Shown here piece by piece: positions 50,804 through 64,000 of a stretch of DNA of 64,000 nucleotides; position 1 is the stretch's first letter; every line of letters starts with the position of its first letter. Made by a program: the position numbers and the translations under genes. The stretch comes from Spirochaetales bacterium. Lineage in GTDB: Bacteria; Spirochaetota; Spirochaetia; JABEVK01. The notes below the pieces were generated by a model. It saw nothing but the letters and a program-made list of their open reading frames with translations, was not told the DNA's origin and did not search any database. The stretch is taken from contig JBAXAI010000017.1 in assembly GCA_037142615.1 (NCBI GenBank), forward strand, positions 13,437 to 77,436, written 5' to 3'.

Positions 50804-52009
50804 CTACTCCACCAGCAGTTGCAGCCAGCTGACGTCGTCGAGACGCGGGACGGCCCCTTGGTGCGCCGCCAGCGCGGCAAGCAGGGTCTCGGGCAACGCC
50901 TGGGGGTTGCCGGGCGCGCTGGCCAGGCGCCACACGCTGGCGTCGCCGAACTCGTGGCCTTCGGCGCTGACCTGCTCGGTGAGCCCGTCGGTGTACAGGC
51001 ACACCAGGTCGCCCGGCTGCAAGCGCAGGCGGTAGAGCGTTGGCTCGAGCCCCAGATCGATGCCCAGAGGCAAGTTCATGTTGGGGAACCGCAGGGGTCG
51101 GATCTTGCCTTGGCGGACGAGAAACGAATGCCCATGGCCCATGTCGGCCAACGTGAGCTCGCGGTTCTCGGCGTCGTAGGTGAGAAAAATGCCTGTCAGG
51201 TACTTCTCGAGGTGAAACGTGTGGATGAGGGCCTCGTTGACCTGCAACAGCAACCGCTTGAGCCCTTTGCGAAAGTCGTAGAACCGCAGCACGCCCCACA
51301 ACAGAGAGGTGAGAATGGACGCCGCGACGCCCTTGCCCGAGACGTCGCCAAGAGCGACGAAGACCTTCTGACCGCCGAGGGGAATGACGTGGTAAAAGTC
51401 GCCGCCCAGGCCTTTGGCCGAGTGCGAGAACGCCTGGGTGAACCAGCCCAGTCCGCTTTCGCCGGAACGCAGGGGAACCAACCGCACCTGGAGCTGGCCG
51501 GCGAGCGCGATGTCTTCCTGCGTCATCCGCGAAAGCCAGGTGAGCAGGTCTTTCGAGGTGAAGATGCCCGTGAAGCGTCCCTCAGCGTCGTTCAACAAGT
51601 AGTACTGGACCGTGTGGGCCTCGAGGTCCTCACTCAATTCCTCGGCAACGGTGAACAGGTTGGCATTCTGGTCAAACGACCGCACCGCCTCGACGACCGA
51701 GCTGGCCGCCTTTCGCGAAAGGACCTCGACGCCAAAGGGCTTGCCCAGCAGGCGGAACAGGTGCTCCCGGGTCACGAGGCCAAGAGCCTTGCCTTCCGCA
51801 TCGATGACGCCGACGGCCTGACGGCTGGGTTCCTGAAATAACCGGGCCAGTTCGTCGACCCGGCAGTCGGCGCGCACGCCTTCGAAAAGGTCCGCGACTC
51901 GAACGAGGCTGGTGCCGTAGACCCGTCCGGGACGCGTGCTGATAAGAGCGGCCGAAGGCAACGCTGTGGAGGGAGGCAGGACGTCGGGAGGGGCGCTGAG
52001 GGATTCCAT
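50804..52009 (-). CDS. CBS-pair + PP2C (SpoIIE/RsbU-type) phosphatase
   Basis: Two CBS-like repeats, GGDFY, GDVSGKG, YTDGLTE, DDVS. Confidence 0.9.
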   Translation of the reverse strand: MESLSAPPDVLPPSTALPSAALISTRPGRVYGTSLVRVADLFEGVRADCRVDELARLFQEPSRQAVGVIDAEGKALGLVTREHLFRLLGKPFGVEVLSRKAASSVVEAVRSFDQNANLFTVAEELSEDLEAHTVQYYLLNDAEGRFTGIFTSKDLLTWLSRMTQEDIALAGQLQVRLVPLRSGESGLGWFTQAFSHSAKGLGGDFYHVIPLGGQKVFVALGDVSGKGVAASILTSLLWGVLRFYDFRKGLKRLLLQVNEALIHTFHLEKYLTGIFLTYDAENRELTLADMGHGHSFLVRQGKIRPLRFPNMNLPLGIDLGLEPTLYRLRLQPGDLVCLYTDGLTEQVSAEGHEFGDASVWRLASAPGNPQALPETLLAALAAHQGAVPRLDDVSWLQLLVE

Positions 52010-52031
52010 GACGCGAGGCTGGTCCGACAGC

Positions 52032-52085
52032 GTGAGATTTTCATGAGTTGGGCGCGGGAAAACGCAATTCTCATCAAAAGGTAAC
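52032..52085. promoter_or_regulatory. Two divergent PHO-box-like repeats
   Basis: Minus: CTCAT-N6-CTCAC (52047-52032), N10, CAGCCT. Plus: CTCAT-N6-GTAAC (52070-52085), N10, CAAGTT. Confidence 0.6.
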
Positions 52086-52119
52086 GGCTTGGGCGCAAGT
52101 TGCCCGCAGGAGGAACCTC

Positions 52120-52461
52120 ATGCAGATGGACTTTCAGCCCGGGCGCAGGCCGGACCAGCTGGTCACCGTGCTCTCAGGAGACCTGGACCTGTACGTCGCC
52201 CCGGCGTTCGCTCAGGCCGTGACGAGCCGCATGGACGCCGGCGCCTCGCGTGTGGTCATCGACTTCGGCGAGGTCAACTACCTCGACTCTTCTGGGGTCG
52301 GGGCCCTGATCCGGCTGCTTCAGAAGGCCAAGCTGCTCGGAGGGGAACTCCGCGTTGCCCGCCTGTCGGGAACGCCCCGCAAGGTGCTCGAGATGAGCAA
52401 CATCCTCTCAATCCTCAAGACGGTGCCCGACGTCGAAACGGCCTTGCAGGGCTGGACGTAA
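52120..52461 (+). CDS. STAS anti-sigma factor antagonist
   Basis: LSGDLD, YLDSSGVGAL phospho-Ser motif; AGGAGG RBS. Confidence 0.92.
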   Translation: MQMDFQPGRRPDQLVTVLSGDLDLYVAPAFAQAVTSRMDAGASRVVIDFGEVNYLDSSGVGALIRLLQKAKLLGGELRVARLSGTPRKVLEMSNILSILKTVPDVETALQGWT

Positions 52462-52462
52462 C

Positions 52463-52987
52463 ATGACGCCTTTCATCATCCGCAAGTTGATTGTCGACGA
52501 CCGCAACGAACTCTTTGAGGCCCAGGGAATGCGGTACCAGGAGTTTCCGTCAGACCTCGGCCGCGTGCGGGACTATGCGGCAGAGATCCTTCGGGACTGC
52601 CCCGACGCGTTTCGGGAGGGCAACCTGCTCGAGCAGCAACTGTCGGAACTCCTCAAGAACGGCATCAAACACGGGAATGGAAGTGATCCGTCGCGCGCCC
52701 TCAAGGTGTGGTTTGACCTGCGCAAGCGCGCCCGGTTCATCGTCGAGGACCAGGGCGAGGGTTTTGTCGGCCTCGAGGAATGGAACGCCTTCTTCCAGCG
52801 CCGGCAACGCGCGCTCTACGAGCAGGACTTCGACGCCTTCTTGAGCCTGGCCTCGTACCGGGGGCCTCACTCGGACGACACCGACGGCGGCAATAGCCTC
52901 ATCGCGGCCCTCGAGTACTGGAACGGCGGCATGATCTACAACGGCAAAAAGAACAAGGTCGGCGTGGTGCGCTGGTTCTCGGCCTGA
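52463..52987 (+). CDS. Anti-sigma/RsbW-like HATPase kinase
   Basis: SELLKNGIKHGN N-box, VEDQGEGF G1 box, atypical G2 (GGNSL). Confidence 0.82.
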   Translation: MTPFIIRKLIVDDRNELFEAQGMRYQEFPSDLGRVRDYAAEILRDCPDAFREGNLLEQQLSELLKNGIKHGNGSDPSRALKVWFDLRKRARFIVEDQGEGFVGLEEWNAFFQRRQRALYEQDFDAFLSLASYRGPHSDDTDGGNSLIAALEYWNGGMIYNGKKNKVGVVRWFSA

Positions 52988-54912: not shown

Positions 54913-56250
54913 CTAGTTGGTCAGCGCGTTGTACTCGGCGAGCTCGGAGCTCGACTTCTTGGCGGCATCATCCAGGGCCGCCTGGGCGGTAGAGAACTTG
55001 CCCGACAGGAACTGGTCGATGGCCACCTGGGTGTTGGCCCGCGACTTGACGAAGGTGCCGAACGCGGCGCCCTGCGTGGCGGGCAGCGCCGGCGAGTCAT
55101 GGAGCTGGTCGACAGCCACCTGGAACTGGGGGTACTGCGCCAACGTGGCCTTCATGTCGGCCTGGGCGTACGACGCCTTGCGGACGGGGTAATAGCCGGT
55201 GCTCGAGGCGAAGAAGGCCTGGGTCTCGGGCGAGGCGGCGAACTTGGTGAAGTCCCAGGCGCCGGCCTGCTGTTCGGGGGAGCCGGTGCTGGTGAGCCAC
55301 AGCGACGCGCCGCCGATGATGACGCCGCCCTTGGCGCCGGCTGGCCGCGGGAAGTAGGCCACGCCCACGTCGACGCCCTTGCCAGCGGTCTTGGCGTTGG
55401 TGAGGTAGCCGCGCAGGCCCGCGATGCTCTGGACAATGATCGACACTTCGCCGTTGACGAAGGCCGAGTCGCGGGCGGTGCTGTTGGCGCCGCCGTCCAT
55501 GCCGTAGCTGCGCGCCACGCCGTCATCGAGGGTCTTCTTGAGGAAGTTCAACCAGCTGACGCCGGCGGCGTTGTTGAAGGTGAGCTTGGTGGCGCGGTCG
55601 GTGCGGCCGTTGTTCGGGTCGGCGTACAGGGCGGCCTGGAGGGCCAGCTGCTGCTCGAAGTACCAGCCGTAGATGGTGTAGCCCAGGCCGTAGCGGGTCA
55701 CGTTGCCCGAGGCGTCCTTCACGGTGAGTTTCTTGGCCGCGGCAAGCAGCTCGTCGTAGGTCCAGACCTTCTTGTTGAGGTCGAGACCGGCGGCTTTGAA
55801 CGCGGTGCGGTCAAAGTACATAACCGGTGTCGAGGTGTTGAACGGCATCGACCAGAGCTTGCCGCCGAGCGTGTAGTAGCTGGCCACGGCGGGTTCGAGG
55901 TCGCTGGCGATATCGAGCTTGTCGCGGGTGATGAGGTCACCAACGGCCACGACCTTCTTGGTGTCGATCATGCGCTGGGTACCGACGTCGTACACCTGCA
56001 CCACGTTGGGCAGTTCACCGCCGGCGAGGCTGGTGTTGAGCTTGTTGATGGTGGCGTCGTAGTCGGGCTGGCTGACGGCCTCGACCACGTACTTGGTCTG
56101 GCTGGCATTGTACTTGTCGACCACCTGCTTGACGACTTCGCCGTTGAAGCCGGTGAGGCCGTACCAGAAGGTGATTTTGGTCTGCGAGAAGCCCAGGGGG
56201 GCGGTGGCAAGCACCGCGAGCCCGAGGGCGAGACGGAACAGGTTTTTCAT
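54913..56250 (-). CDS. ugpB: ABC substrate-binding protein, UgpB-like (glycerol-3-phosphate/glycerophosphodiester)
   Basis: [33 protein letters not shown]; context with permeases and GDPD. Confidence 0.8.
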
Positions 56251-56272
56251 TGGTTATCTCCCTTGAGCCTGC

Positions 56273-56347
56273 AGTCTGCCCGGCTCGCGTGAGTTTCGCG
56301 TTTGGCGCCGATGAAACTGCGTCAGGGGACTGTGAGGAACTGGTGAG
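56273..56347 (-). promoter_or_regulatory. PHO-box-like array and -10 for ugpB
   Basis: CTCAC, CTCAC, CTGAC, TTCAT, CAAAC, CTCAC at ~11-bp spacing, then N10 and CAGACT. Confidence 0.7.
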
Positions 56348-56353
56348 GTGGAC

Positions 56354-57175
56354 CTAGCCCTTGACGGCACCGGCCGTGAGGCCTTCCACAAGCTGCCGCT
56401 GCCCAAGGAAGAGCACCAACAGCGTAGGCGCCAGCACGATGAGCGTGGCCGCCATGGGCAGGTTGAAGCTGGCGATCTCGGACGAGCGGAAGGCCGTGAT
56501 GCCCACCTGCGTCGTCCGCCACTCGGAGTGGTCGATGACCAACAGCGGCCAGTAGTACTGGTTCCAGGTGTTCAGGAAAGCCCAGATGGCCAGGGTCGCC
56601 AAGGCCGGCTTGATGAGGGGCACGAGGATGCTCCACAGGAAACGTCCGTGTCCGCAGCCCTCGAGCACGGCGGCCTCCTCGAGCTCGTGGGGCACCACCA
56701 ACAACGCCTGCCGGAGCAGGAAAATGCCGAAGCCCGAGGCGAGAAAGGGCACAATGAGTGCCTGGTAGCTGTCCTTCCACCCCCACTTGGCGATGGTCAG
56801 GTAGTTGGGAAGGATGGTGCTTTCCCACGGAATCATCAGGCTGGCCAGGAACAGAAAGAAAAAGAAGGTGCGCCCGCGAAAACGGAACAGGGCCAAGGGG
56901 TAGGCCGCGAGCAGCGACACCAACAACTGACCCGCGGTGACGGTGAGGCTCACCACCCACGAGTTGAGGATCCAGCGGGCCATCAGCGGCTCCTTCTGGA
57001 AGACCTGGACGAAGGCGCTTGGGTCGAGCCGCGAGAAGTCGGGCACCAGGCGCGGTGACACCGTATCCCCCTGCACGGCGATGCTCAGGGCGAACAGGAG
57101 GGGCAGCAGGATCAGCGTCGCGGCCAGGGTGAGGCCGGCGTACAAACCAGCCAGCTTCCAGGGGAGGGCTTTCAT
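56354..57175 (-). CDS. ugpE: ABC permease, UgpE-like
   Basis: ELEEAAVLEG EAA loop, WNQYYWPL. Confidence 0.82.
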   Translation of the reverse strand: MKALPWKLAGLYAGLTLAATLILLPLLFALSIAVQGDTVSPRLVPDFSRLDPSAFVQVFQKEPLMARWILNSWVVSLTVTAGQLLVSLLAAYPLALFRFRGRTFFFFLFLASLMIPWESTILPNYLTIAKWGWKDSYQALIVPFLASGFGIFLLRQALLVVPHELEEAAVLEGCGHGRFLWSILVPLIKPALATLAIWAFLNTWNQYYWPLLVIDHSEWRTTQVGITAFRSSEIASFNLPMAATLIVLAPTLLVLFLGQRQLVEGLTAGAVKG

Positions 57176-58044
57176 TGGTAGTGCACCCGGCCGTCGAAGC
57201 AGTACTGCGCCAGCGACAACACCAGCAGCAGCGCGAAGAGCACCACCGACAACGCTGCCGCGAAGCCATAGTTGTTCTCGGTCCAGAACGCGGTGAACAG
57301 CGCGAACACGAGCACGTTGGTTGATCCGTCCGGGCCAACGCTGTCGATGAGCACCTTGAACTGCGTGAAGGCCTGGAAGGCGCCAATGGTCGACGTGATC
57401 AAAAGAAACAACAGCGTGGGCGTGAGCAACGGCAGAGTCACCCGCCAAAAGGTCGTCCACGCGTTAGCGCCGTCGATGCGGGCGCTCTCCCACAGGTCCT
57501 TGGGGATGGCCTTCAGGCCGGCAAGCAGGATGATGAAGGCGAAGCCCAGGCTGGTCCAGATGGTCATGGCCGCCACGGCCGGAAGCGCTGTCGCGGCGTC
57601 GGTGAGCACGTGGTCGAACAGCTTGAGGCTGGGGCTGTAGAACAGCGACCAGATGACCCCGGCGCTGGCGAGGCTGATCGCCAGGCTCGAGGTGAAGATG
57701 GTGCGGTAGACGCCAATGCCCTTCACCTTGGCGCTGGCCAGCAACGCCAGACCCAAGGCCAAGATCAGCGTCAGCGGTACCACCATGAGCGTGAACTGGA
57801 ACGTGGTGACAATGCTGCGCAGCCATTCGTCGCCAAGGGCGGTGTCGCCCACGTTGAGGATGCGCTGGTAATAGCCCAGGCCAAACCACTTGGCCGGTTC
57901 GAAGGTGTTGCGGTCGACCAGGAACAGCGACAGCTGGATCGCCCTCGCGAAAGGCAGAAAAGAGAACACCGTGAACAGGACGAGCGCCGGGGCCATGTAG
58001 GCCAGCGCCAACCAGGGGATGTGGCCGCGTCTGGTGGTGTGCAT
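57172..58044 (-). CDS. ugpA: ABC permease, UgpA-like
   Basis: LAGLKAIP..LWESARIDGA, TLPLLTPT. Confidence 0.82.
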   Translation of the reverse strand: MHTTRRGHIPWLALAYMAPALVLFTVFSFLPFARAIQLSLFLVDRNTFEPAKWFGLGYYQRILNVGDTALGDEWLRSIVTTFQFTLMVVPLTLILALGLALLASAKVKGIGVYRTIFTSSLAISLASAGVIWSLFYSPSLKLFDHVLTDAATALPAVAAMTIWTSLGFAFIILLAGLKAIPKDLWESARIDGANAWTTFWRVTLPLLTPTLLFLLITSTIGAFQAFTQFKVLIDSVGPDGSTNVLVFALFTAFWTENNYGFAAALSVVLFALLLVLSLAQYCFDGRVHYQ

Positions 58045-58050
58045 GGCCCT

Positions 58051-58093
58051 ACGCTAGCCGCGCCGCGTGAGGATCCCGTCAGGAAATGGTGAG
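58051..58093 (-). promoter_or_regulatory. PHO-box-like array and -10 for ugpA (overlaps parA stop)
   Basis: CTCAC-N6-CTGAC-N6-CTCAC-N10-TAGCGT-N6-ATG. Confidence 0.72.
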
Positions 58094-58813
58094 GATCTCG
58101 TGCCAAAGGGCCCCGTAGAGCTCACTGACCTGCCGACTTCGTCTCCACATGCGGGTCTGGCTCTGGTCGAGCGTACGCTCGATATCGGCAAGCAGGGGGA
58201 CCGACGCCCGGAGAAACCCGGGCGGAGGAGCCTCGAGTAGCTGGCGGTGAGTGCCTTTTCGCCGGTCTACCATCGACAGGAAGGGGGCCAAGAGTGGGGG
58301 GTGGCGGTCGAGCTCGCTCACGAACCCGCGGACCTGTTCCCAGGTGCGGAAGCCCAGTGCCGAGGGAACTACCGGCACCACCAGCGTGTCGGCCGCACGG
58401 AACAGGGCCTCCGAAAGCAGGGTGAGCCCCGGCGGACAGTCGAGGAAGATGACGCCAAACTGCTGCCGCAGCGGCTTGAGCCAGTCAGAGAGCAGTTTCC
58501 GGGCGTGGCCCTGCTCCTGCAGCATGGTGTCCCAGTGGCGGAACGACTGGTCGCAGGGAATCAACGCAAGGTTCCCGATGGCGGTGGGGCGAACTTCGGA
58601 GACCCAGTCGCGCTTGCCGGCCAGCAGTTTGCGGGCCGAGACCTCGGTTCCGGTCTCGTGCCGCAGGAAGTACGAGGCGGCGCCCTGCGCATCGAGGTCC
58701 CACAACAAGGTGGGTACGCCCAACAGGGCCGAGGTCCACGCGAGGTGAACCGCGCTGGTCGTCTTGCCCGACCCCCCTTTGCTGGTGTAGACGGCGTACA
58801 CTTGGGTGTTCAT
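58079..58813 (-). CDS. Orphan ParA/MinD-family ATPase
   Basis: Deviant Walker A KGGSGKTT, WDLDAQG, FLDCPPG; ATGA overlap with the upstream gene; no parB nearby. Confidence 0.92.
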   Translation of the reverse strand: MNTQVYAVYTSKGGSGKTTSAVHLAWTSALLGVPTLLWDLDAQGAASYFLRHETGTEVSARKLLAGKRDWVSEVRPTAIGNLALIPCDQSFRHWDTMLQEQGHARKLLSDWLKPLRQQFGVIFLDCPPGLTLLSEALFRAADTLVVPVVPSALGFRTWEQVRGFVSELDRHPPLLAPFLSMVDRRKGTHRQLLEAPPPGFLRASVPLLADIERTLDQSQTRMWRRSRQVSELYGALWHEILTIS

Positions 58814-59715
58814 GCGGGGCTCCTTCGGGGGTTCTTGGGTTCGGGTTCGGCCTCGGCGCAGTCCTGCAGGCTCAGGGCACCGAGGCGCACCACGTCGCCC
58901 CAGTCGGCTGCCGAGGCCAGCGGGATGATGCGCCGCTCGCGCTGCGACGACTCCTGCCACCGATTGGCGATGCGGGCGACGCGAAACGGAAACAGCAGCA
59001 GGTTGGCGATTCCCTGCTCGCGTTCGTAGGGAAGCAGCAGCGGATGACCGCAGATGCTTCCGCTGAGTCCAGCCTCCTCAAGCGCCTCGGCTTTGGCGAC
59101 CTGTCTCGGCGTCCGGCCCGGCTCGGGCTGCCCCTTCGGAAAAATCCAACGGCGCCGGTCGCGGGTCGACACCAAGACCAGGTCGACACCGCGCCGGGTG
59201 GGCCGGAAGGGGATGACGCCGTACGACCAGGAGCCCCGCCCCACCTTCCACAGGCAAGGAGGCTCGCTCGCCGCTGCGAGCTCGCGAGGTTCAAATCGGC
59301 GATCGTAGGTGAGCTCGGGTCCGAAGGTTTCGGGCGGGACGAACCCGGTCCGGCTGTCGCGGTCGGGAAACCCCACCTCAACCGTCACGAGACCCGCCAG
59401 GGCCCCCTCGAAGCGGCGGATCAGGCCGGACCTGCCCGCGACCTCGCAGGCCTCTTCGCGGTAAGTCGCCCGGCGCCCACGCGTACGGGGCCAGAGGGCG
59501 TCGAAGGCCTCGCCAGAAACGGGTTCCGACCACGACGGCGAAGCCGACAACCGTGGCTGAAGGCTCAGTTGGTACCGGCCCTCGGCCTCGACCAGGCCAA
59601 TGTCCCAGTCCCCGGTGTTGTCGAGAAAGCCGAGCCCCGTGAGGCCCGGGTTGGGCCCCGCAAGCCTGGCGGCCGAAGGGTCATACAGAAAGGTTCTTGT
59701 CTGGCTACGGTTCAT
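58810..59715 (-). CDS. CYTH-like (degenerate) + Nudix hydrolase fusion
   Basis: CYTH C-terminal pattern GLVTVEV...FVPPETFGPELTYDRRF; Nudix WIFPKG...EALEEAGL. Confidence 0.82.
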   Translation of the reverse strand: MNRSQTRTFLYDPSAARLAGPNPGLTGLGFLDNTGDWDIGLVEAEGRYQLSLQPRLSASPSWSEPVSGEAFDALWPRTRGRRATYREEACEVAGRSGLIRRFEGALAGLVTVEVGFPDRDSRTGFVPPETFGPELTYDRRFEPRELAAASEPPCLWKVGRGSWSYGVIPFRPTRRGVDLVLVSTRDRRRWIFPKGQPEPGRTPRQVAKAEALEEAGLSGSICGHPLLLPYEREQGIANLLLFPFRVARIANRWQESSQRERRIIPLASAADWGDVVRLGALSLQDCAEAEPEPKNPRRSPA

Positions 59716-61096
59716 GGCGGTACCTCAGACCCTGACGGAAGGCCTTCGACCCCAGAACCCGGGCGGCCTCGACCGCGCCCCGCTTGAGCTGTTCGTGCTC
59801 GGCAGCCAAAGAGCCCAAGAGCAGGCCAAAGGCCAAGGGATCCACCGAGGCGCCCCCGCTGCGGACTTCGGCCACCTGCCGCTTGAGGTGTTCGAGAAGA
59901 ACGGACCGGTCCTGAAAGTCACCCAGGGCCTGCTGGGTGCCCTTGAGCAGAATGAGCAGGTGCCTCCCTTGGGGAACGAGGGCACCTAGCCCCTCGAGAA
60001 CGTAGCGCAACCGCTTGGAGGCAACCCGCAGTTCGTGAAGCTGCACGTCGCCCGGCTCATCGCCGAGGGCTGCCAGGTCCTTGCGCAAGCGACGAGCCAC
60101 GCCCAAGAACCGGTTGGTGGTCAGCTCGCCCAACGTGAGAGGCTCACCGCGGGCCCCCAAGGCCCCGGCCAGCGAGACGATGTCGCTGCACAGCCGGGCG
60201 TAATCGGCTGACCTCAGCCACCGGCAGACCCGGGCCCGCTCGGCCGAGGCCTGGGCGACGGTCGCGGTCTGCCAGCCTTCCAGGGCCAGTCCCTCGCCCC
60301 ACGGCAGCCGCGCCCGGAGCGCGGGCAGGTCGAGCTCCAGCACCTCGAGGTCGCGCAGCGCATTGGTCTCTTGCTGAAGCCGCCTCAAGACATCCTTGAG
60401 CCGCGCCCACTCCGGCAGCCCTCGCCAAGGGATGCCCAGCGAGCACCACGAGCGGGCGCGGCGAAGGTGTACACGGTACTGGTGCAGGCACTCCGTGTCG
60501 ACGTTGTCCAAGACCCCGGCCTCGTACTGCCGGGCGACGCGAAAGCTATCGAGCAGCCGGGTGGCGATGCATGCGGCGGCCGGTTGGGATGCCTCGAGCT
60601 CGGCGGCCTGGGGCCCCTCAAACCGGTGCCCGGAGGGAACCCAACTTGGTAGGTCGGCGGACGCGCTCAGCATGCCTTCGGCGACAAACATCTGTTCGAA
60701 CGCCTTCAGGCGCTGTTCGTCGTCGGAACGCAACACCAGCCAGGACCGACGGCGAGCCTTGACGATGTGACCCTCGACGAGTGGGCGACCTTCGGCTTCC
60801 CAAGCCACGGTGCGGACTCTCAGGGTCAGTTTGCCTAGGTAGACAGGGGCCTGCAAGCCGAACTCGCCGGCGTCGGCGCTCAAGGGGAACAGTGCCGGCG
60901 GTGCCACGCGGGCAAACCCGCTGGAAGTCCTGACCCACACCTGTCCTCGGGCTTGCCAGCGATGGTCGTAGGTGTCGAAACACTGGGCTTCGACGACGGA
61001 CTCGGGCCCGAGCGTTCCGGGGAACCGAAGAAAGAAGTACGTGAGGTACGACGACAGCGAACCGACCCGGCCAGGCAGAAAGACTGCGGTCCTCAC
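59705..61096 (-). CDS. CHAD domain protein with N-terminal CYTH-like remnant
   Basis: CFDTYDHRW; LHQYRVHLRRARS, LRDLEV, LHELRVASKRLRY, LGDFQD; start uncertain. Confidence 0.85.
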   Translation of the reverse strand: MRTAVFLPGRVGSLSSYLTYFFLRFPGTLGPESVVEAQCFDTYDHRWQARGQVWVRTSSGFARVAPPALFPLSADAGEFGLQAPVYLGKLTLRVRTVAWEAEGRPLVEGHIVKARRRSWLVLRSDDEQRLKAFEQMFVAEGMLSASADLPSWVPSGHRFEGPQAAELEASQPAAACIATRLLDSFRVARQYEAGVLDNVDTECLHQYRVHLRRARSWCSLGIPWRGLPEWARLKDVLRRLQQETNALRDLEVLELDLPALRARLPWGEGLALEGWQTATVAQASAERARVCRWLRSADYARLCSDIVSLAGALGARGEPLTLGELTTNRFLGVARRLRKDLAALGDEPGDVQLHELRVASKRLRYVLEGLGALVPQGRHLLILLKGTQQALGDFQDRSVLLEHLKRQVAEVRSGGASVDPLAFGLLLGSLAAEHEQLKRGAVEAARVLGSKAFRQGLRYRHEP

Positions 61097-61118
61097 GATG
61101 GGGCAGCCAACCGGTCCC

Positions 61119-61394
61119 TCAGTCGAACGCCGGAAGAGAAACGGGCTGGCGCAGCCGCGAGCGGGGACGCTGTTGATTCTGCGCGTCAATGGTTTGGTAG
61201 GCGGCCTGCAGGCGGTCCTTGGTGAGTGCATCAAGGCTTTCGAGGAACTCGTGCCATTCGGTGGGTGAATTGCAGGCCTCGAATCCGCGGCGACGCAGCG
61301 GCACGTCGAACTGGTTCCGGGCCTCGTCGTCTTCCAGGAGCCAACGTCCGAGGTCACAGAGGTTCTGAACTTCCAACCGCCGAGGTTTCCACAT
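61119..61394 (-). CDS. Small hypothetical protein upstream of the CHAD gene
   Basis: 91-aa ORF with ATG preceded by a TAGGCT -10-like hexamer and a PHO-like box. Confidence 0.55.
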   Translation of the reverse strand: MWKPRRLEVQNLCDLGRWLLEDDEARNQFDVPLRRRGFEACNSPTEWHEFLESLDALTKDRLQAAYQTIDAQNQQRPRSRLRQPVSLPAFD

Positions 61395-61429
61395 AGCCTA
61401 AAGCCTAGTCTCAATCGCAAGCCGGAATT

Positions 61430-61445
61430 GTGAGAAATTGGTTAG
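61430..61445 (-). promoter_or_regulatory. PHO-box-like repeat upstream of small ORF-CHAD unit
   Basis: CTAAC-CAATTT-CTCAC on minus strand. Confidence 0.55.
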
Positions 61446-61456
61446 TTCATTCGGCT

Positions 61457-63142
61457 TCACTCGCTTGGAACAGCGCCTTCCCAGAGAGGCAGACGTACCC
61501 GGAACACCGTCTTGCTGGGCACCGACTCGAAGGTGAGCTTGCCCCCGTGCTCGTCGACGATGGTCGAGACGATCTTGAGACCGAGGCCCATGCCCTCGCC
61601 GTTGGCCTTGGTGCTGAAGAACGGTTCGAGTACTTTTTCCTGAATGTCGGGCGGAATCCCCGGGCCAGAGTCCTTCACCTTCACCAGGGCCCAGGTCTTT
61701 CCGGAATCGACCTCGATCGAAAGCTTTCCCGAGGGCCCCATGGCCTGGATGGCGTTCATGACAAGATTGCTCCACACCTGCATCAGACGGTCGGGGTTCG
61801 CCTTGACCCAGGGACCTCGGTCGGGAAACTCCTTGCTGATCTTGATCCCCCGAGGGATTTGGCTCCGGTAGACCAAGAGGACGGTCTCGAGGTTGTGGGA
61901 GAGGTCGACAGCCACGACGGCGGTGTTGGCCTTCGGATTTTTGGCGTACCGGCGTAGCCCGTCGACCTGGTCGGCAAGTTTGGTACCCGAGAGGCGGACG
62001 ATCGACACCGCGCGCTCCCACTCCACAAGCACCGTGGCGCTTTGGAGGAGCGCCTCGGCACCCGGAGCCAAGAGCAGGGGCAGCCACGAATCGCGCAGTT
62101 CGTGCAGGCCCAAATCGGCGAGCACACGGGCCTTGGCTTCGGCATCGGGAAACCCGAAGTCCTTCAGGCGGCGGGCAAAGTCCTTGCGCAGTTCGCGCAC
62201 GCGCCGGGAGTCGAGCAGGTCGATGTCGGTTTGGGCCTGATCGATCACCTCGAGGAGCAAGGCCGCCTGATCGGACCCCAGCCTCGGAATCAGGTGGGTC
62301 CAGTCGGCCAGGATGCGGTTCGTGTGCGCTGTCAGGTGGTTCGCCGAGGCTTGGAGGGCGCCGAGCGGTGTGTTCATTTCGTGCGCGATGCCGGCCACGA
62401 TGCGCCCGAGCGATGCCAGTTTTTCGCCCTCGGCCAGCGATACGCTGGCCCTCTCCAAACGCTGCTGGCTTTCGACCAAGTCGGCGGTGCGCTGCTCGAT
62501 GAGGACTTCCATTTCTTTCTGCGAACGGGTGTGAAGGTGTGTGGTGCGCTGGAACACGGTCTGCAGGTACGCCAAGAGACCGGTCAACGCGCCGCTGATC
62601 AGAACGAACCGCGCCAGGGCCCCCAAGAGCTCGGCGTCATCCGCGGCAGAGAGCTTGGGATAGAGAAGGTAGAGCACGCTGAGAAACTCGGCAACGAGCG
62701 ACGCCAGAAAGCCGAACCAGAGCGACCAAGTGGACGCACCGAACAGCGTCTGCAGCACCAGGTTGACGAGCACAAAGGTGAGAAAATAGTCCGAAAGCAG
62801 AGGCGTGAGGGTGGTCTCCGGGGCCAAGAGCACCGAGAAGTAGCGGGCTACGAAGAGCAGAGGCAGGCCCCAGCCGTACACCACCAAGGCGCGGCTCACG
62901 TGGTTGCGCCGTACGAGGTCGAGGGTGATGGCTTGCCAGGCAGCCAAACCAAAGCCCACCAGCAGGGTGGCCGAGGCGGCGGTTGCCAAACTGTAGGCAA
63001 GGACCACCAGAACCAGCCCCAGACCAACCCACAGCACCGACACGAACAGCCTGGTGCGCGCCCTTTCCCAGTACGATTGCGGCGGCACCTGCCCCAGGGT
63101 CAAGTCAACGAGACGCGAGAACCAGGAAAACAACGGGGTCAC
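61457..63142 (-). CDS. Membrane sensor histidine kinase (orphan)
   Basis: About 6 TM, AHEMNTP, NLVMNA, DSGPGI, EPFFSTK, GMGLGL; GTG overlaps the GDPD stop. Confidence 0.92.
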   Translation of the reverse strand: MTPLFSWFSRLVDLTLGQVPPQSYWERARTRLFVSVLWVGLGLVLVVLAYSLATAASATLLVGFGLAAWQAITLDLVRRNHVSRALVVYGWGLPLLFVARYFSVLLAPETTLTPLLSDYFLTFVLVNLVLQTLFGASTWSLWFGFLASLVAEFLSVLYLLYPKLSAADDAELLGALARFVLISGALTGLLAYLQTVFQRTTHLHTRSQKEMEVLIEQRTADLVESQQRLERASVSLAEGEKLASLGRIVAGIAHEMNTPLGALQASANHLTAHTNRILADWTHLIPRLGSDQAALLLEVIDQAQTDIDLLDSRRVRELRKDFARRLKDFGFPDAEAKARVLADLGLHELRDSWLPLLLAPGAEALLQSATVLVEWERAVSIVRLSGTKLADQVDGLRRYAKNPKANTAVVAVDLSHNLETVLLVYRSQIPRGIKISKEFPDRGPWVKANPDRLMQVWSNLVMNAIQAMGPSGKLSIEVDSGKTWALVKVKDSGPGIPPDIQEKVLEPFFSTKANGEGMGLGLKIVSTIVDEHGGKLTFESVPSKTVFRVRLPLWEGAVPSE

Positions 63143-63873
63143 TCCGGTTCCTGTCGGCGCCGGAACGCCACCGCCCGCTCGGTCTCGTTGGTGATCAGGC
63201 CGTCGCAGTAGGGCCAGACGAGTTCCATCTCGGCCTCGGTGTTCACTGTCCAGACGAGCACCTTGACGCCGTACACCTGGCGCACGACGAAGGCCGTGAG
63301 CGTGGCCCGGGCGCGGCTGACGTTCTGGAAGTACAGGACGGGAACGTTGACCGACCAGGGGCGGTAGCGCCGGATGAGCGCCTGCACACTGGGTGCCCCG
63401 GGCGCGATGTGGCGTTGATCGAACAGGAGGGCCGTGCGGTAGCCCAGCTCGCGCCACGGGGGAAGCAGGGTGTGCTCGAACGATGAGATCAGCACGTTCT
63501 CAGGGTCGTAGTGGGCGCGGACAATCGCGTCGAGGGCGGTAGCGTCGCCGGGCGCAAGGGTCTCTTCCTTGAGTTCCAAGTTGAGCAGGATGGTCCTGGG
63601 AAGAGCCCGCAGCCAGTCCTTCAGCTCAGGGATCTCGACCGGCAGGTGGCGCCACACGGCCGCGTCAACATCGGCAACCTTGTCGGGCCGGCCGCTCAGG
63701 CGCTCGAGCGTGTGGTCGTGGAAGACAATGTAGGCGTCCTTGGCCTTCTGAACATCGAACTCCAGCCCGTCGGCGCCGGCCTCGAGGGCCAAACGGGCCG
63801 AGGTCAGGGTGTTCTCGGTGGCGCGCGGCGGGTAGCCGCGGTGGCCCAGGATGAGTTTGAGTTGCTGCTTCAT
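63139..63873 (-). CDS. ugpQ: Glycerophosphodiester phosphodiesterase (UgpQ/GlpQ-like)
   Basis: GHRG, ENT, EFDV, HD, NLELK, ISSF, WTVN, DGLITN. Confidence 0.9.
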   Translation of the reverse strand: MKQQLKLILGHRGYPPRATENTLTSARLALEAGADGLEFDVQKAKDAYIVFHDHTLERLSGRPDKVADVDAAVWRHLPVEIPELKDWLRALPRTILLNLELKEETLAPGDATALDAIVRAHYDPENVLISSFEHTLLPPWRELGYRTALLFDQRHIAPGAPSVQALIRRYRPWSVNVPVLYFQNVSRARATLTAFVVRQVYGVKVLVWTVNTEAEMELVWPYCDGLITNETERAVAFRRRQEPE

Positions 63874-63913
63874 GGGCGCACTGTAGCCCGGTCGTTCGCG
63901 CTTGGGAATGCGC

Positions 63914-63940
63914 CTCACAGATTTCTCACGCGAGTCTGAC
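63914..63940 (+). promoter_or_regulatory. PHO-box-like array pointing out of the window
   Basis: CTCAC-N6-CTCAC-N6-CTGAC. Confidence 0.6.
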
Positions 63941-64000
63941 ACGACCCTAGCCCGATCTTCTCACGAGGCGTTCGATGCTGACGTTTTCGGACCTGACGAA

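Follow-up and report, generated by a model that had tools for sequence, protein, structure and literature searches.

The question raised by this locus is what an orphan ParA-type ATPase does at the end of an operon whose other genes point to polyphosphate (polyP). The locus lies in a 64,000-nt stretch (the window) of a Spirochaetales genome (assembly GCA_037142615.1, contig JBAXAI010000017.1) and consists of four genes on the minus strand: a 91-aa open reading frame (ORF) for a helical protein (61394-61119), a CHAD gene with a GTG start (61096-59705, 463 aa), a CYTH-Nudix fusion (59715-58810, 301 aa) and the ATPase (58813-58079, 244 aa). The first two are 22 nt apart, the next pair overlap by 11 nt and the last by ATGA. 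A first-pass annotation, made from the sequence alone, had proposed a system for positioning polyP granules, and its description of the gene order, both overlaps, the intact KGGSGKT motif and the DRRK patch is accurate. It was also right that no parB is near: the sole parB of the genome is on another contig (C22) beside its own soj, whose product is 23% identical to the operon ATPase. As shown below, the ATPase belongs to a clade that is linked to polyP genes well beyond this genome. The reading we favour, at a probability of roughly 0.45, is that a Pho-regulon operon here handles polyP granules and that its ATPase spaces or segregates them much as McdAB does carboxysomes.

The link was assessed by comparing gene neighbourhoods. 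Clade membership was assigned with a profile made from 44 of the 120 listed homologues, picked regardless of their neighbours; clade members score 216-355 bits with it and Soj-like proteins about 100-185. The neighbourhoods came from 19 GTDB, 80 metagenome and 8 profile-search loci, to which were added samples of the window's own phylum (all 17 other clade places in 201 genomes, plus two more) and of proteobacteria (40 of 63 clade places in 251 genomes, a sample apparently skewed to one genus). The metagenome scan yielded mostly ParAs outside the clade, and these became the control set. The window and three duplicates were removed from the count, while two truncated rows below the score cut (L040 and L041) may be clade members. 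A polyP gene directly adjoins the ATPase at 25 of the 90 clade loci as against none of 72 loci of other ParA family members, 49 of which have at least 1 kb of upstream sequence. These neighbours are CHAD at 18 loci (with ppk1 also present at three), ppk2 at six and ppk1 alone at one, and they are mostly found upstream of the ATPase gene on the same strand, often overlapping it. The local CHAD and PPK profiles used for these counts were built partly from the same loci, and divergent neighbours may escape them.

Of the 106 rows in a quick maximum-likelihood tree, 91 are from the clade and 15 from the outgroup. The tree separates the clade from Soj-like rows with an SH-aLRT of 100, and the operon ATPase falls in a group with a long branch, adjacent to further rows from its own phylum. 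To account for the CHAD label, 13 changes are required, at least five of them forced by well-supported branches, so that the association cannot be attributed to one recent lineage. The clade also reaches proteobacteria, Acidobacteriota and Actinomycetota, which makes the earlier appeal to a long cell unnecessary.

Co-occurrence in whole genomes points the same way. CHAD is present in 13 of the 17 own-phylum carriers of the clade ATPase compared with 10 of 184 non-carriers, and in 53 of 61 carriers against 69 of 190 non-carriers in the proteobacterial sample. Had carriers lacked a polyP kinase, the first-pass proposal would have been in difficulty; all 17 own-phylum carriers have one (13 ppk1, four ppk2), whereas ppk1 is found in 65 of the 184 non-carriers. 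Counted by locus, as above, the link of the clade to polyP genes is far above chance. The genome of the window (4.27 Mb in 76 contigs, 97% complete) itself carries ppx-ppk1 and ppk2 in addition to the separate soj-parB pair. Among nine plasmid records with a match, six were examined: two Paracoccus plasmids, from P. aestuarii DSM 19484 and P. marcusii, carry in this order a small RHH-like gene, CHAD, the ATPase, an intact CYTH and a DIPP-like Nudix, so that the operon's modules recur there in a different arrangement, and the other four show no CHAD or ppk in the available stretch, which for two of them ends at the record edge. The first gene of the Paracoccus operons (L181:4296-4484 and L182:2285-2473) encodes 62 residues, ParG-like in size, and matches RHH_1 with an E-value of 0.0035, under the cut-off. 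Another order, seen in two genomes (L116 and L121), is thymidylate kinase-like gene, small helical gene, metallophosphoesterase, CHAD, ATPase.

The operon proteins match Pfam CHAD (PF05235, 1e-34), NUDIX (1e-5) and AAA_31 (1e-24). In the first of these proteins a degenerate N-domain of CYTH/TTM fold (residues ~1-170), TTM-like and without the CYTH motifs, precedes the CHAD domain (~175-455). Modelled as a one-residue variant (pLDDT 92), this protein has its best fold matches in CtCHAD (6qv7/6qva), with TTM folds weaker, and alignment and spacing both match H205, R208, R212, R248, R364 and Y365 to the polyP ligands of CtCHAD (PMC6537752). To judge by these residues the protein is a phosin, with a CHAD fold and the His/Arg residues of the polyP pore intact, and the earlier reading of it as a polyP-binding protein is supported. 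A 571-aa frame from 61420 is an upstream extension of the CHAD frame and was ruled out, since the homologues share the start at 61096.

The two halves of the CYTH-Nudix fusion differ in conservation. No Pfam family matches the CYTH half, which was recognised through its homologues, a profile match to NE1496 (4e-40) and its fold. Changes affect 24 of its 59 conserved columns, including all the signature acidic and basic tunnel residues: ExExK has become SxTxT, and R40, R42, K53, K85, R87, E98 and E115 are replaced, with loss of RxR and of the second E of ExE (for the roles of these motifs see PMC8233210). The fold is preserved despite these losses. On its residues, the CYTH half in this genome is a catalytically dead pseudoenzyme, and the notion of an active triphosphate enzyme is not supported. 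All 17 aligned homologues have an intact CYTH half, and the data suggest that other assemblies may hold CHAD, an intact CYTH-Nudix fusion and the ATPase together. A further fusion, in the relative G005 (L176:4697-5593), likewise combines degenerate CYTH motifs with an intact Nudix box.

The Nudix half differs at three of 53 conserved columns, all conservatively, and keeps the other 50 and the Nudix box. Its profile matches DIPP3, DIPP1 and Ddp1 at 3e-12, as against 4e-7 for Ap4A hydrolases, and its fold is of the DIPP type; in the PDB the best matches to the fusion are NE1496 for the N-terminal half and DIPP1, DIPP3 and Ddp1 for the C-terminal one. Hydrolases of the DIPP/Ddp1 type can cleave polyP (PMC8064635), the substrates of Ddp1 also including ApnA and inositol pyrophosphates. 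The Nudix half is therefore, as a matter of sequence type, DIPP/Ddp1-like and likely to cut polyP. The proposal that the Nudix fusion mobilises polyP is in keeping with the type of this half.

As for the ATPase, the hallmarks of the ParA/MinD superfamily are all present: the deviant Walker A motif with its signature lysine, the switch I aspartates and Walker B. K12, KGGSGKT, D39, D41 and D125 are invariant in the clade, and the operon ATPase has G13-G14 and G16-K17-T18. No membrane-targeting helix is possible, since only five residues follow LWHE, and the NCBIfam MinD model scores far under its cut-off. In B. subtilis Soj the DNA-binding residues are R189 and R218 (10.1101/2025.07.02.662783, PMC3778016). 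Mapped via the motif and the outgroup columns, without an aligned B. subtilis sequence, the first of these corresponds to R185 of the DRRK patch, which is kept in all 25 polyP-adjacent rows and in 67 of the 91 clade rows, and is flanked by extra basic residues. The clade has a basic loop of its own after switch I and specific residues at W38, R92, R156, H189 and E212. Net charge is +9.6 in polyP-adjacent rows, +6.7 in other clade rows and -3.5 in the 15 Soj-like rows. An ATPase of this composition is expected to have a polyanion as ligand, which may be DNA, polyP or the two together.

A positioning ATPase would need a partner on its cargo, a role for which the 91-aa ORF had been put forward. 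The search returned six matches, of which five are full-length homologues (31-49% identity) and the sixth (P0202) a spurious repeat protein; no family in Pfam, NCBIfam or Atlas covers the ORF. Homologues stand divergent to CHAD in G003 and G005, both of which lack this ParA, and none lies beside CHAD in G001. A scan of other clade ATPase loci turned up no copy of the ORF, which is unlike the small Lys-rich genes that precede ParA in other spirochaetes. The 91-aa protein is thus, on its distribution, a real small family linked in this lineage to CHAD and not to ParA; since it occurs without ParA, it is unlikely to be the adaptor.

Other small proteins deserve mention here. At six spirochaete loci without adjacent CHAD (L109-L114), a Lys-rich helical gene of 95-137 aa is coupled directly upstream of the ATPase, and these are better adaptor candidates than the 91-aa ORF. 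A small Lys/Ala/Pro-rich helical protein is encoded behind CYTH-Nudix in G003 and G004 (L174:501-815 and L175:4556-4897, both minus strand), and the window's own genome has a homologue near its phn genes (C42:13084-13452), without a Pfam family. The latter has a histone-H1-like tail that resembles AlgP. The two small Lys-rich sets are only weakly alike (10-16 bits, HHalign probability 2%, with reversed controls at 0-2 bits).

The regulation of the operon can be approached through the short repeats upstream of it. Two 11-bp-spaced repeats, CTAAC/CTCAC, lie 36 nt upstream of the 91-aa ORF (61430..61445, minus strand) and form a probable PhoB-type box. Against the E. coli PHO consensus the site at 61430-61445 matches at 11 of 18 positions, an unremarkable level met at about 12,000 positions in the genome. 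A local matrix derived solely from the three-repeat arrays of the region (58067-58093, 56321-56347 and 63914-63940), with the operon site left out, gives it 11.1, next to 11.3 upstream of pstS and 14.8 upstream of the phnD/phnC transporter genes; 19 of 2147 upstream regions in the genome score at least 11. Comparable sites beside the CHAD genes of G001, G003 and G005 score 10.1, 12.3 and 14.1. No noteworthy matrix site was seen upstream of ppx-ppk1, ppk2 or phoU in this genome. A count of eight pattern occurrences against 0.87 expected is no independent test, the pattern having been derived from the same sites. phoU adjoins a response regulator and kinase pair, which we read as putative phoBR. 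With one 11-bp repeat box common to the pstS and phn promoters and PhoBR apparently encoded, a Pho regulon is indicated, and the operon box would be of PhoB type and bound by PhoB. The PHO-like box of the first-pass annotation is hence real, as an organism-specific direct repeat, even if it fits the E. coli consensus poorly.

From the gene content, the residues, the box and the association we infer the regulation, localisation, partner and movement as follows. Under phosphate limitation, a PhoB-type regulator would induce the operon. The CHAD protein would coat polyP granules, the Nudix domain would cut polyP chains and the dead CYTH half could have a structural or docking role. With ATP, the ATPase would dimerise and attach by its basic surface to a polyanionic matrix, the nucleoid DNA, from which a partner on the granule, in all likelihood the CHAD protein, would release it; the granules would in this way become spaced or segregated, much as McdAB distributes carboxysomes. 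In a bolder and more tentative version, the whole clade would be a dedicated and widespread 'polyP ParA', the first ATP-driven granule organiser, activated on the granule by CHAD (or, at loci without CHAD alongside, by Ppk1 or Ppk2) and perhaps using polyP as a second matrix, the instance described here being PhoB-controlled and coupled to a Ddp1-like endopolyphosphatase with a CYTH docking module. Of the system as first conceived, the link to polyP genes, the kinases, the CHAD residues and the Nudix type are supported; the small ORF as adaptor and the active CYTH enzyme are not, and neither is an obligate system.

Several observations weigh against granule positioning. Where all 15 outgroup rows have the second Soj arginine, the operon ATPase has D210 and the clade E, A or D; with a charge of +4, the operon protein is also less basic than its clade and no longer has several basic residues typical of it. 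There is no CHAD or ppk neighbour at 65 of the 90 clade loci, including all 12 from Acidimicrobiia, and no CHAD match in four of the 17 own-phylum and eight of the 61 proteobacterial carriers; moreover, related genomes are not independent and both genome samples are uneven. In the window's own family, CHAD is kept by seven of 11 relatives (three of the 11 being less than 90% complete) and the ATPase by none, so that granules there are managed without it, and an obligate CHAD-ParA system is not supported. In the four relatives examined, CHAD stays coupled to CYTH-Nudix, with other genes behind; this pair therefore forms the core of the system, to which the ATPase is an optional addition. In the literature, polyP in S. 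elongatus is spaced independently of McdA (PMC13556221), and the spacing of polyP as published depends on AlgP or on chromosome segregation, or is independent of McdA (PMC13556221, PMC13052382).

The residue data bear on a different view, in which the ATPase acts on polyP instead of the nucleoid, binding granules in its ATP state, loading, remodelling or regulating CHAD, Ppk or Nudix, and so setting granule size or turnover. The basic residues peculiar to the clade do lie outside the DNA face of Soj (columns 53-67, 75, 92, 156, 184-190, 213 and 218), H189 is invariant, the second Soj arginine has gone, and the neighbours swap among CHAD, ppk1 and ppk2, for which polyP is the common ligand. Nevertheless, the first Soj arginine survives in most clade rows, DNA or membrane is the matrix of other A/D ATPases, and the operon copy lacks several basic residues typical of the clade; we consider action on polyP in place of the nucleoid unlikely.

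The neighbourhood data, for their part, would allow the ATPase a cargo other than the granule, such as a complex of another kind, or a part in nucleoid or cell-cycle processes during phosphate stress, with the polyP genes adjacent for co-regulation only. The many loci without polyP neighbours would then be explained, as would the recurrence of other partners (Acidimicrobiia have ABC solute-binding genes, the six spirochaete loci small Lys-rich helical genes and Paracoccus an RHH gene) and the position of the operon within a wider cluster of boxes. In Acidimicrobiia (L007-L018) the ATPases form a basal subgroup, in most loci behind the solute-binding gene, and may have another cargo. Yet where polyP neighbours occur they are specifically granule proteins and kinases, overlapping the ATPase gene across phyla and never found beside control ParAs, and the co-occurrence persists where the genes lie apart; mere co-regulation thus seems rather improbable. 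Finally, that the operon is decaying here and the ATPase a remnant, as the lost CYTH residues, the long-branched ATPase subclade and the missing ATPase of the 11 relatives might hint, is very doubtful given open frames, retained overlaps and box, intact ATPase motifs, third-position GC of 0.81-0.84 like that of the neighbouring genes, homologues of 79-83% identity in other assemblies, and CYTH losses that hit tunnel residues while sparing the fold and have a parallel in G005. Spacing or segregation of granules by the ATPase is accordingly retained as the preferred reading.

Further boxes lie around the operon. A three-repeat box of the same motif overlaps the ParA stop codon (58067..58093, minus strand) and probably serves the downstream ABC permease genes, and three-repeat boxes also lie within the ABC transporter region (56321-56347) and at a glycerophosphodiester phosphodiesterase (GDPD) gene (63914-63940, plus strand). 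The transporter (54913..58044, minus strand) comprises two permeases and a solute-binding protein (Pfam BPD_transp_1 and SBP_bac_8); its box and the nearby GDPD gene (63139..63942, minus strand; PF03009, 5e-25) suggest a glycerophosphate, ugp-like role. Between GDPD and the operon is a membrane histidine kinase (61457-63133), the operon box falling just past its stop codon. The repeat (CTCAC/CTGAC/CTAAC, 11-bp direct) defines an organism-specific regulon of the ABC transporter, GDPD, pstS and phnDC, with sites including C49:24132 and C42:18322, and more high-scoring repeat sites occur on contigs C26, C1 and C69. A sigma-70 scan found no promoters, and terminator-like sites number two against 3.3 in shuffles. 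Further off in the window (50804-52987), a CBS/SpoIIE-like phosphatase gene adjoins anti-sigma-antagonist-like and small kinase-like genes in what resembles a partner-switching module.

The matter is of some general importance. According to a 2025 review, whether energy is used to localise polyP granules remains to be seen (PMC13052382), and a 2026 paper describes the molecular basis of polyP organisation as unclear and the function of phosins as unknown (PMC13556221). Full-text searches found no study in which a ParA for polyP granules is tested or put forward, although subscription papers or supplements could hold such a remark, and neither CHAD nor polyphosphate occurs in the main text of the survey of A/D ATPases in H. 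neapolitanus. On these searches a ParA clade linked to polyP is undescribed, only the ppk-parA-CHAD synteny being already in print. This locus itself contributes evidence for a regulon, a Ddp1-like fusion whose CYTH half is dead, an ATPase that close relatives do without, and grounds for striking the small ORF from the adaptor candidates. The energy question becomes directly testable, since there is now an ATPase clade to work on, a possible partner for it, and in Paracoccus aestuarii DSM 19484 a cultured host whose operon is compact. If the favoured reading is true, the ParA/MinD family gains a new cargo and phosins a function, which would also matter for bacteria that accumulate phosphate. 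Independently of this, a Ddp1-like polyphosphatase in bacteria would count as a result in its own right.

Comparison with known systems helps to place the operon. With Soj of ParABS the ATPase shares the deviant Walker A, signature lysine, switch I aspartates, Walker B and first DNA-binding arginine, but it is far from the Soj of its own genome, has an acidic or small residue at the second arginine and no adjacent parB. The CHAD protein resembles the phosins CtCHAD, PptA and YgiF in its CHAD fold and polyP residues, and YgiF also in its TTM-like N-domain; it differs in that this domain has no CYTH signature and that its gene is coupled to those of a Nudix fusion and an ATPase. DIPP/Ddp1 and NE1496 (NeuTTM), the best sequence and fold matches of the two fusion halves, are here fused, with the CYTH half dead in this genome. 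AlgP of Pseudomonas aeruginosa organises the spacing of polyP granules (PMC13052382, PMC9239181), but as a histone-like tether with no known ATPase, and its sequence is unrelated to the operon proteins. In Acidithiobacillus folD-ppk-parA-CHAD, parA adjoins a CYTH-CHAD gene and ppk, and the first-pass remark that CHAD and ParA might already have been seen together is correct in this sense; the two papers give it as synteny only and take parA for a partition gene (PMC6416229, PMC10892726). Here ppk is elsewhere and CYTH-Nudix stands between CHAD and parA. A functional analogue would be McdA/McdB, where an orphan ATPase of ParA type again lacks a parB, has its gene among those associated with the cargo (polyP genes in the present case, at the frequencies given above) and carries a basic patch and no membrane helix. 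A nucleoid-binding surface of the McdAB kind would be basic; the operon ATPase keeps the DRRK patch and a net positive charge but has lost the second Soj arginine, and no McdB-like or carboxysome genes lie beside the ATPase at the loci scanned. The two ATPases belong to different clades, the profile match to McdA (6NON) reaching only 7e-20, and the cargo proposed here is the polyP granule.

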